DNA from: Acidilobaceae archaeon | Lineage (GTDB): Archaea > Thermoproteota > Thermoprotei_A > Sulfolobales > Acidilobaceae | Reading direction: 5' to 3' | NCBI GenBank assembly: GCA_038824665.1 | Contig: JAWBBK010000001.1 | Coordinates: 32,001-96,000 of the forward strand | Length of the DNA stretch: 64,000 nucleotides | Shown: positions 12,035 through 31,600 of the stretch, piece by piece | Position numbering within the stretch: the first letter of the stretch is position 1 | Layout of the letters: each line of letters starts with the position of its first letter | The notes under the pieces: generated by a model | What the model was told of the DNA's origin: nothing | What the model saw: only the letters and a program-made list of their open reading frames with translations | Databases searched by the model: none | Program-made: the position numbers and the translations under genes

Positions 12035-12132
12035 GGGGCCGTCGTCTAGCCTGGCTAGGATGCCAGCCTGGGGAGCGTATCCCCAGCCCGGAACGCTGGT
12101 GGTCCCGGGTTCAAATCCCGGCGGCCCCACCA
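12035..12132 (+). tRNA. tRNA-Pro(GGG) with 20-nt intron (12074-12093) at canonical position 37/38, CCA encoded
   Basis: Acceptor stem GGGGCCG/CGGCCCC; CCAGC-CT GGG G[intron]C-GCTGG; BHB with CTGG/CCGG central helix and 3-nt bulges. Confidence 0.93.
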
Positions 12133-15041
12133 TGCTTCTCTATGTAGACAGCCGGCTTAGCAGGAAGGGCTTGAGATCTTCTTGGAGACACCCCTTCTTC
12201 TTCTCTTTCTACGTAGACTTCTACACCTAGTTCTCTAGCGAAGAACTCTTCTGCTTCTTTGAGTACTGAATACTCGAGTTCTGGATCTATAAGATTCTCA
12301 ATTATTTCTGAACTCTTCGCCACTCTCGAGATCAGAACTCCCGCTTTCTCTTTATATTGTGATGTCCTCAGGACTTCTCTAAGAGCTTCGGCTAAAGGTC
12401 TGCTTTCTGAGAGCTTTTTGACCTCGTTAAGGAACTCGTACTTCCATCTGGCTGCCGTAGTTATGATAACCTTGTCTCCGCCTACTAATCTAAGGACCTC
12501 TCTGACGTCACTAAGTGTGTTCTCCACTATCTTCTCAGCCTTGGCTATATCCGACTTTATTGCCGAAAGGACGGGCTCTGGCCACCGAGCCAAAGACACA
12601 AAGCCTTCTTTTCCTATATTGGACCACACCTCTTCAGCTACATGAGGAGCGAATGGGGCTATGATGAGCGTCTGAACCTCTATGAACTTCTTCAAGAGTT
12701 CTTTATTAGGGATTTTTGCTCTCCTTAAATACCACTTAAACTTCGATTGAAGGCCGTAGAAGCCTTCAACTAAAGCCGATCTGTACATGGTTTTGTCCAT
12801 GAGGTCTGTGACTTTAACTATTGTCTCGTTGAGTACATGATTAAACCAGTCGTCGATTCTCTTCCAATCGTCTCTTCCCTTTCCATAGTTGTTTTTAGCG
12901 AACTCGAGCCAAGCTACTAGGTCTTCTACAGCAGAGTCTGCTGTAGCTGGATCAAAGTTAGCATCATCAAGTGTAGAATCAGCTCCTGCAAGAACCTCTG
13001 CCCATCTGGTAGCGTCGGCCCCCCACCACTCTAGAGCTTGTCTCAATAGAATGAAGTTACCTTTGCTCTTGCTCATCTTCTCTCCTCCTACTAGAACCCA
13101 GCCGTTAACGCTTATGCCTCTAGGCCAGAACTCTCTCGGGAATATGGCTACATGGTGCATTATAAAGAAGATGAGATGATTATAGAGCAAGTCTTTTCCG
13201 CTTATCCTGAGGTCTACCGGATACCAATATAGAAACTCTCTTCTCATATCCTCTAGAAGTTCGACTCCGATTCCTGTTTTTCTAGAAACCTCTTTGGGAT
13301 CTCCTACGCCCAGAAACACATAGTCAAAGAACTCAGGACTTAGGCTTTCAGGCTTGATCCCGTACTTCTCCTGTTGCTTGATATATTTGGAAAGAGTGTA
13401 ATAGGCCATGTATATGGTCGAGTCACTAAGACTCTCTATGACCCATTCGGGATCCCAGGGCAAATGTGTGCCTAGCTCTCCTTTGTGGGTGAAGGCCCAG
13501 TCTCCGAGTTCCTTCAGGAACCTCTTCATCTCTTCTTTAGCCTCCTCAGGGACTATCGTCATAGAGTCTATGGCTTCGAGAGCTGTCTTCTTCCAGCTCT
13601 CGTTGCTGTATAGGATGAACCACTGATCTTCAACTATCTTTACGTGTGTTCTACTCCCACATCTACAATAGACTCGCTGAGGTAGGGTGTAAACCTTCAG
13701 GGTCGCACCTATGGACTCAAGCCATGAAGCGATCTCTTTCCTAGCCTGAGAGACCCTGACGCCTCTCCAAGCTCCGGCGTTCTCTAACATCACTCCTTTG
13801 TGAAACTCTCTACTGTAGAGGTTCTTCGTTGCTTCTTCTAGCAACTTTCTGTCATGTTGACTTTTAACGCCCTTTGCTTTAAGCTCTTCGAGAGCTGGAA
13901 CTCCTTTGTAGTCTTCTGTCTCGATTATCACTATGGGCTCTATCGAAGCGACCAGCTCGTGGCTTAGACCATACTTAGTCAATAGCTCTTTGTTATTCTT
14001 GAGGTCTAGGAGTGCAGCTAAATCGAAAGGAGCGTGAGCTGGAACGCTCATAACGACTCCTGTTCCCACATCAGGGTCTAAGAACCATGCCGGTAGGACA
14101 GGAACTTCAGAGCCTGTAGCTGGATTTGTTGCCCACAGTCCTAAGAGTTCCTGTCCTCTTACTTTACCTCTGACCTCTACGGAGTATCTTTGGTCTCTTA
14201 ACTCCTTGGCAGCTGTCTCTCCAAGGATCCATGTCTCTCCGTTGACCTCTGCTATCAAGTATGAGGCTTCAGAATGTATCCAAATGTTTGTAACCCCGAA
14301 AACCGTCTCGGGCCTGAGAGTTAGAGCTGGAAGCACTCTGCCATCTCTGAGTCTGAACTTAATGATATAAGCCTCTATAGGGCTGATTCCTACATACTCA
14401 TCGGGTCTGTCGTGGTCTCCCACAACCTTGTTCTCCTTGGGACACCAGACGACAGGATGTGTACCCTTTCCTATTAGGTTCTTCTCTTTAAGCTTGAGGT
14501 ATTGCCACTCTATGAACTTACTGTAGTAAGGATTTAGTCGTGTTGTAAAGAACTCCCTCCTCCAGTCTATGCTCATCCCGTATCTCTCTAAGTCTCTCTT
14601 CCACTCCTTCGTAAAGTACTCTACCCAGGTCTCAGGGTCTCTGAACTTCTCTATATCGTGCTCCGGCACTCCAACTGCCTTGAGGCTCTCCACGACTTTG
14701 GTGTCTCCCTCTCTTAGTCTCAGAGCAGCCGCTACTATAGGCCCTCCTGTAGCGTGCCAGCCTTGAGCGAATAGCACGTTGAACCCTCTCATTCTCTTGT
14801 ACCTAGCCGTTATGTCTACTCTGAGTATTGTGAAAGCGCTACCCAAATGAGGAGGAGCATTGACATAAGGATAGGGAAAAGTCACGAAATACTTCTCAAC
14901 GCCTAGTTTAGGGTCAGCCTCGAAGACTCTAGCGTTTCTCCACCTCTCTTGCCACTTGACCTCTATGGATTTGAGAAGCTCTACTAGCTCTCTCGAGGCT
15001 TTGGGAACAACAGTTAGAGTCCTGGGTTTCTCTTCAACAAT
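12111..15041 (-). CDS. leuS: Leucine--tRNA ligase; N-terminus extends beyond ORF-track start (14885), proposed ATT start at 15041
   Basis: FPYPY..PHLG, GTGVVMSVPAHAPFD, KMSKS; upstream in-frame IEVKWQERW...FEADP is the conserved LeuRS N-terminus. Confidence 0.92.
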   Translation of the reverse strand: MVEEKPRTLTVVPKASRELVELLKSIEVKWQERWRNARVFEADPKLGVEKYFVTFPYPYVNAPPHLGSAFTILRVDITARYKRMRGFNVLFAQGWHATGGPIVAAALRLREGDTKVVESLKAVGVPEHDIEKFRDPETWVEYFTKEWKRDLERYGMSIDWRREFFTTRLNPYYSKFIEWQYLKLKEKNLIGKGTHPVVWCPKENKVVGDHDRPDEYVGISPIEAYIIKFRLRDGRVLPALTLRPETVFGVTNIWIHSEASYLIAEVNGETWILGETAAKELRDQRYSVEVRGKVRGQELLGLWATNPATGSEVPVLPAWFLDPDVGTGVVMSVPAHAPFDLAALLDLKNNKELLTKYGLSHELVASIEPIVIIETEDYKGVPALEELKAKGVKSQHDRKLLEEATKNLYSREFHKGVMLENAGAWRGVRVSQARKEIASWLESIGATLKVYTLPQRVYCRCGSRTHVKIVEDQWFILYSNESWKKTALEAIDSMTIVPEEAKEEMKRFLKELGDWAFTHKGELGTHLPWDPEWVIESLSDSTIYMAYYTLSKYIKQQEKYGIKPESLSPEFFDYVFLGVGDPKEVSRKTGIGVELLEDMRREFLYWYPVDLRISGKDLLYNHLIFFIMHHVAIFPREFWPRGISVNGWVLVGGEKMSKSKGNFILLRQALEWWGADATRWAEVLAGADSTLDDANFDPATADSAVEDLVAWLEFAKNNYGKGRDDWKRIDDWFNHVLNETIVKVTDLMDKTMYRSALVEGFYGLQSKFKWYLRRAKIPNKELLKKFIEVQTLIIAPFAPHVAEEVWSNIGKEGFVSLARWPEPVLSAIKSDIAKAEKIVENTLSDVREVLRLVGGDKVIITTAARWKYEFLNEVKKLSESRPLAEALREVLRTSQYKEKAGVLISRVAKSSEIIENLIDPELEYSVLKEAEEFFARELGVEVYVEREEEGVSPRRSQALPAKPAVYIEKHGGAAGI

Positions 15042-15099
15042 AACCGCGCACCTTTGAAAAGAGTCCTGACACGCTCTAGCTTTTAATGTTTAACTACGG

Positions 15100-16308
15100 T
15101 TAGCTTCTCCTTTTCCGCACCTTCGCCTTAGCCTCCTTGCTTTCCTCTTCTTTTTCTCTCTTCTCAACTACAGCTATCCCAGCTCCTATCAGCTTCCTGA
15201 AGACCTCGTCGAGGAACCTGATGTAAACTCCCTTCTGACCTAATGCTGCTCCCATAGCATCTCCGGTCACAGTTAACCTTACTCTGTTGCCAGCGAAGTC
15301 TGCCTCGACTATGTGTTTGTAAACCCAGGCTACGGGATGCACAGCTCTAACTATTTCTCTTAAGTCCAGAGTGTGCTCTATAGCCCTTATGCTCACGCCT
15401 ACCTCTTTCTCCATCTTCTGTACTCTCTCTCCTCCCGCTCCTACAAACCTACCTACGTGTCCTTCTTTGGTGATAACTAAGACTCCTGGCACATGTTGAG
15501 CCGTTATCTCGTACTTCTTCTTCAATCCTTCTATGTTGAGCACCGTTACCACATCTGCGTCAGGAGCGTAGATTCTAGCCGCGTCTCTTACTCTAGACTC
15601 AAGTTCATCCAGAGGTCTCTTCCTCATCTGGAATTCCAGCAAGAGCTTGATTCCCTTCTTAGCTCCCGGTCTTACTATGTCTCTTAGACCCAGGTCTACC
15701 ACTACTGCTGACTCCTCGCCGAGAAGTATCTCTCTAGCCAAGGTTGCTCCATCTCTATCGCCGAACCTCTGAAAGACTGGGTCTCCAGCTATTATCAACT
15801 TGCTTTTCCTGCCCATTCTCGTTATTATTTCAACTATGGTCTCTGCCGAGGTCCCTTGAGCATCATCAACAATTATAACTGACTCGTCAAACGTTCTCCC
15901 TCTGAGGAAGTGAGGATCAGCTAGTACTAGCTTCCCTGAAGCCATAAGCTCGTCAAGAGCTACGGGGTCTGCAAAGCCCGCTAGGATGTCTCTCAGGTAG
16001 TCGCTAGCGTGCTTCACGTATGCCTGAGGGTCGCTGAAGAGAGTTATCTCTCTTCCTGTCACCACGTCTACTATTGGTCTCGATAAGACCATCCTCTTGT
16101 AAAGTCCTCTCACAGTAGCGCTTAATCCGTATGATATAGCGAACAAGCTCTTTCCCGTGCCCGTAGGTCCGAAGACTCCGATTATCTCCTTCTCTGAAAC
16201 CAGAGCTTTCTTGAACTCCTCCTGACCCAAACTCTTTGGCTCGAGCTTCTCGAAGAGTTCCGCTATGCTCTTATTCTCAAAGGCTTCGGGTTGTCTCGAT
16301 CCGCTCAA
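15100..16308 (-). CDS. PhoH-like ATPase fused to KH domains
   Basis: GPTGTGKS, LRGRTF, DDAQ, TRMG, AGD; C-terminal GxxG KH motifs (VGAGG, LGQKG). Confidence 0.88.
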   Translation of the reverse strand: MSGSRQPEAFENKSIAELFEKLEPKSLGQEEFKKALVSEKEIIGVFGPTGTGKSLFAISYGLSATVRGLYKRMVLSRPIVDVVTGREITLFSDPQAYVKHASDYLRDILAGFADPVALDELMASGKLVLADPHFLRGRTFDESVIIVDDAQGTSAETIVEIITRMGRKSKLIIAGDPVFQRFGDRDGATLAREILLGEESAVVVDLGLRDIVRPGAKKGIKLLLEFQMRKRPLDELESRVRDAARIYAPDADVVTVLNIEGLKKKYEITAQHVPGVLVITKEGHVGRFVGAGGERVQKMEKEVGVSIRAIEHTLDLREIVRAVHPVAWVYKHIVEADFAGNRVRLTVTGDAMGAALGQKGVYIRFLDEVFRKLIGAGIAVVEKREKEEESKEAKAKVRKRRS

Positions 16309-28158: not shown

Positions 28159-29817
28159 TTGATCTGGGACTTGCTACTGAAGATCTTTAAAAAAAGCGAT
28201 GACGTTCTAGCGAGAGACCAGTTTTTGGAGAAACCCCAAGATGATCTCACAGTTCCTGAAACCCCTGAGATCAAAGGATATGAAAACCATGAGGTAGTAG
28301 ATAGATATACAGTATCCAAACCCTATGCTCATGTATTTATATTGGAGGACAGAGATAATAGAGAGAGACTTTACTACGTTTACGAAAGTCCTTTAAACGA
28401 GTATGAAGTAAAGGTCTTCGAGAAGCTAAAGCGAATCTTAGAATGGGAATTAAAGCCTTTCGACAGGTCTCTGGCTACAAAGAGTTCTCTCAAGATGTCA
28501 GAGCTAGAAGCAGAAAAAGAGTACTTGCTAGATCAGGTCAGAAGTCTCTTGAAGAGATATAGTATAAGACTAGAGGCAGCGCTTAGGAAAAGGATCGATT
28601 GGAACAAAATCTACTATTATCTGGTTAGAGACAGTATAGGATATGGACCTCTAGATGTAATTATGAAGGACCCTTATATAGAAGACGTCAGTTGTAATGG
28701 CGTCGGTAAGCCCGTATATGTTTGGCATCAGAAGTATGAAAGTATGCCCACAAACATAGTCTTTGAGACAGAAGAAGAGCTAGACTCCATGGTGTTGAAG
28801 CTTGTTCATAAGGCAGGAAAACATATAAGTAGCGCATTCCCTATAGCTGATGCTGTCTTGCCTGAAGGTCATAGGCTTGCCGCTACGTTTAGAAAAGAGG
28901 TCAGCACTCGTGGCTCAACGTTTACCATAAGGAAGTTCAAAGAGAAACCTCTGAGCGTAGTTGACCTCGTGCTAGGCGGCACGCTAGATCCTATGACTGC
29001 TGGGTACTTGTGGCTAGCTATGGAACACAAAATGCCAGGCGTAGTGATAGGGGTCACTGGCTCGGGTAAGACGACGATGTTAAACGCTTTGGCTACGTTG
29101 TTCAGACCTAACATCAAGGTAGTCACTATAGAGGACACGGCCGAGCTGAAGTTGACCTTAGAGAACTGGGTACAACTCGTAGCTAGACCTAGCTATGCTC
29201 TCGGCGGTAGCAAAGTCGGAGAGGTCACACTTTACGACCTCGTAAAGGTGAGTCTGAGATACAGACCAGACGTGATAATAGTAGGTGAAATCAGAGGAGA
29301 GGAAGCCTATGTGTTGTTCCAAGCAATGGCCACAGGTCACGGGGGACTAACTACAGCACACGCCGAACACGTTAGGAATCTAGTGAGAAGGCTTACGAGC
29401 CCGCCTATGAACATACCGCCCAGCTACATACCCCTGCTTAAGTGGTGTCTTCTGGTCAGAAGAGTGACGTTGACTACTGAGCGCGGTCCTGTGACAACCA
29501 GAAGGGTCTTCAACGTGTGGGAGATCAAAGACTACGAGAACTACAAGGCTACAGTAGCTTGGGACCCCGCTAAAGACAAGTTCTCTCTTGACCTTAGAGA
29601 AAGTATAATAGTAAGAGAGGTTAGCCTCTACGTAGGTAAAACTCCAGAAGAGATTGAAGAGGAAGTGAAGAGAAGAGCTACCGTTATCCAGTGGATGGCA
29701 CTTACAGGTAAGAGAGACTATAGAGAGGTAGCTAACGTCGTTTACATGTACTACAGATTCCCCGAAGAGGTCTACAAGAGAGCAAAAGAGGAGGTGACTC
29801 AACATACAAAGAAGTAG
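28159..29817 (+). CDS. Type IV pilus assembly ATPase (ArlI/CpaF/VirB11 family)
   Basis: D..IEDVSCNG, GVTGSGKTT, IEDTAEL, LRYRPD.IIVGEIRG.EA, TGHGGLTTAHA. Confidence 0.93.
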   Translation: MIWDLLLKIFKKSDDVLARDQFLEKPQDDLTVPETPEIKGYENHEVVDRYTVSKPYAHVFILEDRDNRERLYYVYESPLNEYEVKVFEKLKRILEWELKPFDRSLATKSSLKMSELEAEKEYLLDQVRSLLKRYSIRLEAALRKRIDWNKIYYYLVRDSIGYGPLDVIMKDPYIEDVSCNGVGKPVYVWHQKYESMPTNIVFETEEELDSMVLKLVHKAGKHISSAFPIADAVLPEGHRLAATFRKEVSTRGSTFTIRKFKEKPLSVVDLVLGGTLDPMTAGYLWLAMEHKMPGVVIGVTGSGKTTMLNALATLFRPNIKVVTIEDTAELKLTLENWVQLVARPSYALGGSKVGEVTLYDLVKVSLRYRPDVIIVGEIRGEEAYVLFQAMATGHGGLTTAHAEHVRNLVRRLTSPPMNIPPSYIPLLKWCLLVRRVTLTTERGPVTTRRVFNVWEIKDYENYKATVAWDPAKDKFSLDLRESIIVREVSLYVGKTPEEIEEEVKRRATVIQWMALTGKRDYREVANVVYMYYRFPEEVYKRAKEEVTQHTKK

Positions 29818-29863
29818 TCTCAAAGACTCAGAGGGGAATCCGAGAGCAAAGACGAGAGGAGAA

Positions 29864-31600
29864 GTGGACTTCATAGATGTTTACGATTACATTTCTCTGA
29901 GTCTCTTTGGTAGAATCACAGACTGGTTCACTAAGACCTTTGAACTTGAAGACGCGTTGAAGAAGGCTGGATGGAACCTCTACCCTCCTCTATATTCGGC
30001 AAGAGTACTGATGGCCACGCTTCTCTCTCTCCTCGTCTCGCTATATGTAATTCTCGTCGTCTGGTGGTTCGAGTTTAGTCTGACGTTTCGTATACTTGTC
30101 TCTGTCTTCTCGCTTCTCGTTCCGATCTTCGTCTTAGCTATTGGACTCATGTTACCATCACTAGCTGCAGACTCTAGAAGAAATAGAGTTAATAGCGAGC
30201 TTCCGTTCTTTGCTGCATACCTTACTTCAATGAGTTTAGCGGGCGTTGGCTTAATGCATATCTTGGAGCGCATATCCAAGTTGAAGGTCTTCTTCGGTAT
30301 CAGACGAGAAGCTATAATGATCTTCCGCAACGCCAAGTATATGGGTCTAGACCCTATAGACGCTTTAGAAAGAAATGCCTATGACCACCCTAGCTCTCTG
30401 TTCAGAGACTTCGTGCTAGGCTACATAACGGTACTGAAGACAGGAGCAAACCTAGTCGACTATTTAGAGGTTAGAACTAGAGACATCTTCTCTAAGAGAA
30501 TTGAGGAACTCGAGCTGATAAGTAGCAGAGTAGCGATGTACAGCGAGCTTTACATCATAATAGCCGTCGTGATCGCTATAACCTTCTACGTCTTCTTCAC
30601 TATGACCTCTATGCAACCAACTCAAACAGGTTTTGGAGGCGTTTATCAGTTCGCTCTCTTCTCCTTCATAGTGCTCCCCTTGATGACTCTTGTCGTTATG
30701 TATTTGGTCGATAGAGTTCAGCCTAAGACTCCTATAAGGATCACCTCCCCCTATCTGGCTACTCTAAACTATGGAGTCCCCATAGCTCTGTTAGCATCGC
30801 TGATAGTATTCCAGACAAGCGGAGCGTACAGAGTGCTAGAGGGGATCGTCGACAAACAGACAGTAATAGGACTATCGATGAGTGTAGGAGTCTTTTTCAT
30901 AGCTCTCAGCGTTCCGGGAGCTATAGCGTGGATGAGAGAATCTAGAAGAGCTAGAGGAGCAGGGCTTCAGCTAGCTCTGTTTCTAAGAGAACTCGTAGAG
31001 ACCAGAAAGACTGGACTAGCTCCTGAAAAAGCTATTGTGATCCTCTCCAAGAGAGACTACGGACCGCTCAACCCTGTTCTGAAAAAGATCGCTTCCGCTC
31101 TTGCCATGGGAGCCGATATAGAACAGGCAGCAACTATAGCTGTGAGAGGGTATAAAAACTGGCTCCTCTTAGCCACAATGAGGTTCTTGGTTGACGCTAT
31201 AACCTATGGAGGAGGAAGCCCAGAAACTCTTGAAAGTCTTGCCAGGTACTCAAAGAGTCTGTCCGATCTCGAAGAAGAGTTGACTAAGAAGCTCAAAGTC
31301 TACACAATAATGCCCTACGTGGGAGCTGTTTTAGTTGCTGGCTCCTCGTTGCTAATGGTGGGTCTCGCTTCTCAGAGTCTCGTTACTGGAGCCACAGGCC
31401 CTAGACTAGAAGCTATGAAAGAACAGCTTATGGTTATCTCTTTAGTAGCTAGCTTAGGGTCTATTTTAAACTCCTGGCTTATGGGACTTACTGCGGGAAA
31501 GATATCGAGCGGTACTGTAGCTGCTGGCTTTCTGCACGCTATATTGACCACGAGTTTGGCTATGGTGACCTCTGTGGCTACACTGTCTTACTTGCTTTAG
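29864..31600 (+). CDS. Type IV pilus membrane platform protein (TadC/ArlJ-like)
   Basis: Two T2SSF-like domains (ELPFF; FLRELVE..KTG..PE) with multiple TMs; follows the ATPase. Confidence 0.9.
   Translation: MDFIDVYDYISLSLFGRITDWFTKTFELEDALKKAGWNLYPPLYSARVLMATLLSLLVSLYVILVVWWFEFSLTFRILVSVFSLLVPIFVLAIGLMLPSLAADSRRNRVNSELPFFAAYLTSMSLAGVGLMHILERISKLKVFFGIRREAIMIFRNAKYMGLDPIDALERNAYDHPSSLFRDFVLGYITVLKTGANLVDYLEVRTRDIFSKRIEELELISSRVAMYSELYIIIAVVIAITFYVFFTMTSMQPTQTGFGGVYQFALFSFIVLPLMTLVVMYLVDRVQPKTPIRITSPYLATLNYGVPIALLASLIVFQTSGAYRVLEGIVDKQTVIGLSMSVGVFFIALSVPGAIAWMRESRRARGAGLQLALFLRELVETRKTGLAPEKAIVILSKRDYGPLNPVLKKIASALAMGADIEQAATIAVRGYKNWLLLATMRFLVDAITYGGGSPETLESLARYSKSLSDLEEELTKKLKVYTIMPYVGAVLVAGSSLLMVGLASQSLVTGATGPRLEAMKEQLMVISLVASLGSILNSWLMGLTAGKISSGTVAAGFLHAILTTSLAMVTSVATLSYLL

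Follow-up and report, generated by a model that had tools for sequence, protein, structure and literature searches.

The bacterial gene infC, which encodes initiation factor IF3, has an AUU start codon and is autoregulated by start-codon discrimination. In prfB, the gene of release factor RF2, autoregulation works through a +1 frameshift at CUU UGA C with an upstream Shine-Dalgarno (SD) sequence. The bacterial his and leu operons are controlled by leader-peptide attenuation, and frameshifting at "hungry" codons was reportedly described by Gallant and Lindsley in 1992. As far as we are aware, little is known of how archaea adjust their levels of synthetases and amino-acid pathways to demand, and we know of neither T-boxes nor the classic attenuators of bacteria in archaea. 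Here we analyzed the start of leuS, the gene of leucyl-tRNA synthetase (LeuRS), in a 64,000-nucleotide stretch (hereafter the window) of contig JAWBBK010000001.1 from an Acidilobaceae archaeon. The gene has no canonical start codon; on sequence grounds its frame is entered at an ATT behind an SD sequence, and a TTG followed by a leucine codon overlaps this ATT one base further on. The overlap is conserved at leuS in two archaeal orders, and it may serve, in our tentative reading, as a sensor of charged tRNA.

Start region of leuS in the window

On the minus strand, the leuS start region reads ttaaacattaaaagctagagcgtgtcaggactcttttcaaAGGTGcgcggttATTGTTGAAGAGAAACCCAGGACTCTAAct. The leuS frame is open from an upstream TAA, and no ATG, GTG or TTG occurs in it before the GTG at 14885. 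The encoded protein matched the Pfam families PF00133 (tRNA-synt_1, E 8.5e-38), PF13603 and PF08264, and the catalytic, editing and anticodon-binding domains of an archaeal-type class I LeuRS are all present; public relatives carry the name leucine--tRNA ligase. Counting the ATT at 15041 as residue 1, the class-I synthetase domain begins at residue 29 and GTG 14885 is codon 53. Therefore, a start at this GTG would cut the conserved domain. An earlier model-made note on this DNA (the sequence-only reading) had placed the conserved LeuRS N-terminus upstream of the first canonical in-frame codon, which our analysis supports; the start at GTG 14885, which it named as an outcome that would refute its reading, falls inside the catalytic domain and is not supported. 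A public protein of 976 amino acids is identical to the translation from the ATT, with the N-terminus MVEEKPRT.

The genome comprises 1.10 Mb in 10 contigs, is 82.9% complete and contains leuS as a single copy. Eight listed hot-spring metagenome runs hold part of the stretch, and we compared Logan contigs from four of them, belonging to three studies. The contigs of run X1 (possibly the source) and run X2 are gap-free across 14500-15600; those of run X4, from a different study, cover 15017-15244 with zero differences, and those of run X3, from the third study, cover 14782-15042. No insertion or deletion relative to the window was listed in the contigs of the four runs, their depths being low (2-12). 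Through these four independent contig sets, the sequencing error considered in the sequence-only reading was refuted, and we confirmed that leuS lacks a normal start and that this is no assembly error. Adding one base between the SD sequence and the ATT, which is the layout of the congener described below, gives GCG instead of a start codon, and the GTG of the congener is not restored because the same codon also has a T-to-C change. A one-base assembly error, or a damaged gene starting at GTG 14885 or another internal codon, could appeal to the incomplete assembly and the low depths; considering the identical sequence in four runs, the sole copy of the gene, the same arrangement in many other genomes and the position of GTG 14885 in the catalytic domain, we regard it as barely credible.

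The 3' end of the 16S rRNA of a congener reads GGATCACCTCCA, and the SD sequence complementary to it, GGAGGTGATC, is matched by the AGGTG upstream of leuS. In 286 open reading frames (ORFs) of this genome with an unambiguous start, the spacer between GGTG and the start codon had its mode at 7 nt (27 ORFs; range 4-11), with 10 ORFs each at 5, 6 and 8 nt, and GGTG was found upstream of none of them at spacers of 14-25. We confirmed that the AGGTG lies 7 nt before the in-frame ATT (Table 1), as the sequence-only reading had it, so that the ATT stands at the modal distance and the TTG at 15040 one base past it. TTG is the commonest clear start codon of the genome (113/286), and ATT is its rarest isoleucine codon (16%). 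The complementarity and the spacing show that this SD sequence would set the ribosomal P site on the AUUG at 15041-15038. The locus has the features of a near-cognate start, namely no canonical in-frame start upstream of the conserved residues, an SD sequence at working distance, and conservation of the codon. ATT initiation, which the sequence-only reading had considered simplest, gains from all of these and from the public gene call that begins at the same ATT.

These same two observations, the exact modal spacing and the public call, also favor the main alternative to the sensor proposed below, which is plain near-cognate initiation: the SD sequence would set AUU in the P site for a start of low efficiency, and the overlapping UUG and leucine codon would be functionless, a product of context, second-codon preference or ancestry.

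The nearest relatives show a similar start. In a species of the same genus (G001; LeuRS identity 81%) the start region reads gaaGGTGTGaggatcATTGTTGAAGAG; a GTG stands in frame with the same ATT, three codons ahead of it. Relative to G001, the window carries a T-to-C change in this codon and a one-base indel in the stretch from the SD sequence to the ATT, which is therefore noncoding in at least one of the two species. In a second relative (G248; 71% identity), with the start region aaaGGGTGttgtactATTGTTGAAGAA, GGTG again lies 7 nt 5' of the ATT; going upstream, the first canonical codon in frame is reached 32 codons away, beyond a conserved A/T-rich box. All three species have ATT GTT GAA GAR behind GGTG, and their proteins align without gaps from the ATT on, with changes that are conservative and synonymous. 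The comparison shows that the LeuRS frame is the AUU frame, and the protein is predicted to begin M-V-E-E-K-P-R-T. When metagenome contigs were searched for closer relatives, the best match had 74% identity over residues 13-200, and none belonged to the clade with the residues IVEE.

The A/T-rich box is also kept in the congener and is a putative archaeal TATA element, from which we infer a leader of about 14-17 nt before the ATT. The start region (15062-14975) folds at -17.8 kcal/mol with z 0.74, and 147 of 200 shuffled sequences fold at least equally well. A leader-peptide transcription attenuator was rejected as a class for this locus, with one sensor codon only and no significant RNA structure.

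One base past the ATT, TTG TTG opens a frame of eight codons, as stated in the sequence-only reading. That reading had further proposed a start at TTG 15040 and a -1 slip at A-AAC-CCA into the leuS frame, and the heptamer does have the X-XXY-YYZ layout, behind the start codon that this genome uses most. It is absent in both nearest species (AGC GGG CCA in the congener and AAG CCA GCA in G248), the leuS-frame residues IVEE upstream of it are kept there, the short frame has between 4 and more than 12 codons in different relatives, and no special downstream fold was detected. With neither a conserved slippery heptamer nor a stable downstream hairpin or pseudoknot, the locus was excluded from the class of programmed -1 frameshifts, and we consider a slip at this position extremely improbable.

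Conservation of ATT and the overlapping leucine codon

We pooled leuS 5' regions from 41 relatives, 80 metagenome loci and 33 genome-contig loci. A fourth source was 307 of 325 genomes of the order, with start regions taken for 116. The motif script placed 216 leuS 5' regions; nine of one 80-locus set and a few others, without the KW pattern, were dropped. Absence of a canonical in-frame start was flagged in 20 of the 80 loci of one set and in 6 of the 80 of another.

In 194 distinct 5' regions, 45 of the 67 Ile-Val/Ala dipeptides were written ATT-GCT (24) or ATT-GTT (21), compared with 23 of 545 such dipeptides written ATT-G[T/C]T in gene bodies as a control. The start codon is conserved as ATT and not as its synonymous isoleucine codons, with the exception of five genomes that have TTT. 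Of 44 distinct ATT-G[T/C]T sites, 18 have GGTG at 7 nt, five at 6 nt and three at 8 nt; another 18 have no GGTG at 4-12 nt, some of these with GAGG-type motifs. In 25 sites no canonical in-frame start occurs from the upstream stop to the ATT, and in 17 none occurs anywhere before the conserved KW motif. At several loci (L090, L267, L308 and L311) an in-frame TGA lies within the SD sequence itself.

The sixth base, counted from the A of ATT, is T in 44/44 selected sites. The base after GTT is G in 21/21, and it stays constant as first base of a third residue that varies (E, D, A, G or V). After GCT the base is T in 15, A in 6 and C in 2 of 23 sites, and never G. Because G follows GTT and a base other than G follows GCT, TTG is followed by a leucine codon (TTG or CTH) at every site when the sequence is read one base on. 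The candidate sensor codon is UUG in the window and CUA, CUU or CUC elsewhere. An early codon that depends on the gene product, as expected of a hungry-codon site, is thus found in all the selected sites, where it follows from the selection, and in the same 45/67 against 23/545 without selection. The comparison shows that leuS has kept AUUG with G[U/C]U in two orders. Only the first two codons of the short frame are conserved. For the leucine-sensitive short frame suggested in the sequence-only reading, the TTG plus leucine codon therefore stands and the frame length does not; and of the "two Leu-type codons" it counted, the second is a leucine codon, the first one being the codon that would serve as a start.

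The second order was reached through the Thermofilum pendens protein and gave 30 leuS loci, of which one lacked the N-terminus and 29 were usable. All 29 carry the module, 24 with ATT and five with TTT GCT A; T. pendens and Infirmifilum species are among those with ATT GCT. The ATT cases comprise 23 with GCT (next base A in 15 and C in 8) and one with GTT G. In the five TTT genomes (L330-L334) the ATT is lost and TTG CTA is kept, and an in-frame TGA two codons upstream shuts the leuS frame. From the GTG of GGTGA, these genomes have a frame GTG nnn nnn YTT TGC TAR, containing a YUU-U +1 slip site like that of prfB; the distance of 24-25 nt from a TATA-like aaatttaaat to the GTG suggests that their leuS mRNA may be leaderless.

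A comparable origin was considered for the window: the ribosome would initiate at GTG 15051, inside AGGTG and close to the 5' end of an mRNA with a short leader, and would then make a prfB-like +1 shift before the TGA at 15036-15034. The conserved A/T box 29 nt upstream agrees with it, as do the five genomes above, with their classic slip site and a TATA-like box at the distance expected for leaderless mRNA. In the window, no P-site codon re-pairs one base forward (UAU to AUU, UGU to GUU), and the genome demonstrably uses GGTG as an SD sequence. Moreover, the GTG of the SD sequence cannot be a general start, because among relatives, with spacers of 6, 7 and 8 nt, it falls in all three frames relative to leuS, so that a single direction of shift cannot fit all. 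We think this origin very unlikely.

Within the family of the window (f1), a subgroup of loci (L007, L008, L050, L056-L059, L075-L087 and L124) shares, at the nucleotide level, "gtt GGA ATT G" with an upstream GGTG at 11-12 nt; the members without a canonical start are L007/L080, L075 and L076.

Public gene calls of leuS were discordant (P0002, P0011, P0057, P0104 and P0105), starting at the GTG in the SD sequence, at a TTG 32 codons upstream, or at an ATC further on. Other calls in this public set used the ATT GCT site itself, or a start that truncates the protein, at an ATT three codons short of the KW motif. Because gene callers give such discordant starts, many database N-termini of archaeal LeuRS are probably wrong.

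A second candidate at hisG and near-cognate starts in the genome

Through a census of the genome for GGTG followed after 5-9 nt by a canonical start with a short frame of its own and by a startless long ORF one base off, we found six hits, of which leuS and hisG alone hold up. The other four encode a MgtE-like transporter, a GHMP kinase, an ARMT1-like protein and a flavoprotein; in each, a canonical start in frame further downstream still precedes the Pfam domain, and we rejected them as ordinary genes.

The hisG gene, encoding the long form of ATP phosphoribosyltransferase, reads GGAGGTGATcagtt ATT GCA TGT, and the frame one base on reads TTG CAT, in which CAT is a histidine codon. The sequence GGAGGTGATcagttATT GCA TGT translates as IACRIKLAIPKGSLE; there is a stop two codons upstream, and downstream a canonical codon follows only 83 codons on. 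In the family of the window, hisG was found in this genome, the congener and, as a distant copy, G010 only, and the comparison therefore used other families. Long-form hisG of three genera has ATT GCA TG[T/C] in 10/10 genes and TTG CAT in the next frame in 10/10, with GGTG 7 nt upstream in 9/10; two outgroup genomes use ATG.

In several Sulfolobaceae-like genomes (G312-G315 and G036), hisG and leuS share a contig and are about 5 kb apart. The hisG of three genomes of the Thermofilum-like order (L340, L341 and L342) has no ATT module. It contains a conserved cGT ACC CAC in a short frame that begins with ATG and from which hisG is reached by a +1 shift; ACC would then be the P-site codon, with the histidine codon in the A site. 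An in-frame GTG is also present in one of these genomes.

Near-cognate codons are enriched behind SD sequences in this genome. With GGTG at 6-8 nt and no upstream canonical start, we counted CTG 5, ATA 4, ACG 2, ATT 2, AGG 2 and ATC 1, giving 16 hits over 7 near-cognate codons versus 23 over 51 others; at control spacers of 12-17 the counts were 14 versus 61. TTA, which is not a one-base neighbor of ATG, scored 6 at the same distance. This suggests that start-codon use in the genome may be relaxed. One further candidate start, an ATA on the plus strand of the window (29804-31600), reads GGAGGTGActcaac ATA caa and opens a membrane-protein ORF of 598 codons; a stop stands two codons upstream, and the first canonical codon in frame comes 20 codons downstream.

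Table 1. Positions of the features at the leuS start, with hisG
Feature	Position	Strand	Remark
leuS coding sequence read from ATT	12111..15041	minus	976 codons plus stop; archaeal-type class I leucyl-tRNA synthetase
In-frame ATT, proposed entry to the leuS frame	15039..15041	minus	sequence and orthologue comparison
AGGTG Shine-Dalgarno sequence	15049..15053	minus	7 nt 5' of ATT, 8 nt 5' of TTG
Short frame one base on, TTG TTG AAG AGA AAC CCA GGA CTC TAA	15014..15040	minus	8 sense codons
Start-plus-Leu dicodon TTG TTG, the kept part of the short frame	15035..15040	minus	
Third short frame GTG CGC GGT TAT TGT TGA, its GTG within the SD sequence	15034..15051	minus	+1 shift needed for leuS
A-AAC-CCA heptamer	15023..15029	minus	-1 slip candidate of the sequence-only reading
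In-frame TAA bounding the leuS frame upstream	15090..15092	minus	translation
A/T-rich box gttaaacattaaaagc	15078..15093	minus	kept in G001 and G248; putative archaeal TATA element
First in-frame canonical codon, GTG	14883..14885	minus	codon 53, inside the catalytic domain
Upstream neighbor, PhoH-like ATPase with KH domain	15100..16308	minus	stop codon about 60 nt before ATT
hisG, ATP phosphoribosyltransferase, long form	G000:C1:323577-324572 (loci L234/L235; outside the window)	minus	no canonical start

A two-register start and its relation to known systems

Considering the conserved overlap, we propose that leuS is entered at AUU and that the overlapping UUG-Leu register may be a sensor of charged tRNA, a reading that we place just short of an even chance. 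AUUG would give the initiator tRNA two registers, AUU in the LeuRS frame or UUG one base on. By base-pair counting, AUU and UUG each keep two of three pairs with the anticodon CAU, and the start of the TTT clade keeps one. The SD sequence would favor AUU and codon strength would favor UUG. When charged Leu-tRNA is plentiful, the leucine codon after UUG would be read at once, and the ribosome would be committed to a useless peptide of eight codons, with no LeuRS made. When Leu-tRNA is scarce, the A site would stay empty and the complex would settle one base back on AUU; then GUU (Val) would be read and LeuRS made. The outcome would be a homeostatic negative feedback of LeuRS through its own product, and HisG would be controlled in the same way through CAU.

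More generally, and with somewhat more reserve, we suggest for Thermoproteota a two-register start SD-N7-AUUG-XXX, in which XXX is a leucine codon at leuS and a histidine codon at hisG. The first elongator tRNA would fix the frame, and its scarcity would divert ribosomes to the frame of the enzyme; +1 slips in the neighboring order (YUU-U at leuS and ACC-CAC at hisG) would be sister devices.

Several observations weigh against the sensor. The modal 7-nt spacing targets AUU rather than UUG, and LeuRS can probably be made from AUU without any sensing. The T at the sixth base could mirror a second-codon preference, GCT making up 57% of the alanine codons of the genome. CTG and TTA never occur as the sensor codon, which the model does not explain. 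In 19/44 sites an in-frame canonical start is also present upstream of the ATT, and the "GGA ATT G" group of family f1 has no leucine codon in the next frame. In other families of the order, leuS has near-cognate starts behind GGTGA that no TTG overlaps: CTG A.. in three genomes of family f11 (L177, L185 and L225), and ATT TCA, ATA AGC, ATA AGT or ATT CCA in the Sulfolobaceae-like family f13 (L211, L213, L214, L218, L186 and L223), often with an in-frame TGA inside the SD sequence. At hisG the conserved GCATG also holds an out-of-frame ATG, in the third frame. The TTT clade would fit a +1 slip from the 5'-terminal GTG frame better than a -1 re-registration. The sequences compared are related and not independent, so that all counts overstate the support, and 0 of the eight listed runs is on record as RNA.

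The plain near-cognate start draws on the same starts in other families and on the genome-wide enrichment of near-cognate codons behind SD sequences. It leaves unexplained the G after GTT in 21/21 sites while the base after GCT is free, the five genomes that have TTT for ATT yet keep TTG CTA, and the hisG GCA-T, giving a histidine codon, instead of the common GCT. Nor does it explain why the only two such genes of the genome both handle the amino acid of the codon concerned. We regard it as a serious possibility, held at about a third of our belief.

We found no published account of a leuS device with AUUG and UUG-Leu in the full-text literature, as judged from listings, subscription journals and supplements lying outside this scope. 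Neither "leucyl" nor "hisG" occurred in a 2021 review of archaeal recoding (PMC8211752), and "leucyl" did not occur in 300,000 characters of a 2016 review of frameshifting. The conserved overlay of UUG and cognate codon thus appears to be undescribed; the ATT start itself is already present in one public gene call. A start module conserved at the nucleotide level, with the codon of its own amino acid in the overlapping frame, is a testable regulatory candidate, present at an essential synthetase gene as well as at the first gene of the histidine pathway, and one silent base change should break it. If the sensor reading is true, it would be a ribosome-based amino-acid gauge acting at initiation, and the first of its kind to be described for synthetase and biosynthesis genes of archaea.

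Among the known systems, infC is similar to leuS as an essential translation gene with a conserved weak AUU start behind an SD sequence, for which control by the process it serves is plausible. In infC, IF3 itself proofreads the start codon, whereas the leuS proposal relies on an overlapping UUG and a cognate codon in the other frame. The setting of leuS is moreover that of archaeal initiation, in which the discriminating factor would be aIF1, a factor that discriminates against non-canonical starts in S. solfataricus according to the archaeal recoding review (PMC8211752).

The likeness to prfB lies in a short initial frame that meets a codon dependent on the product, where slow decoding would let the P-site tRNA re-pair one base away and a nearby SD sequence would set the tension. 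The proposed leuS shift differs in being -1 instead of +1. It would be made by the initiator tRNA, on the start codon itself, and the slow codon would be a sense codon (Leu). With attenuation and hungry codons, leuS would share the principle that ribosomes on cognate codons report the level of charged tRNA, and here both a synthetase gene (leuS) and a biosynthetic gene (hisG) would be concerned. It differs from attenuation in that leuS has a single sensor codon rather than a run and that no alternative hairpins were found, and the choice would be one of frame at initiation, not one of transcription termination.

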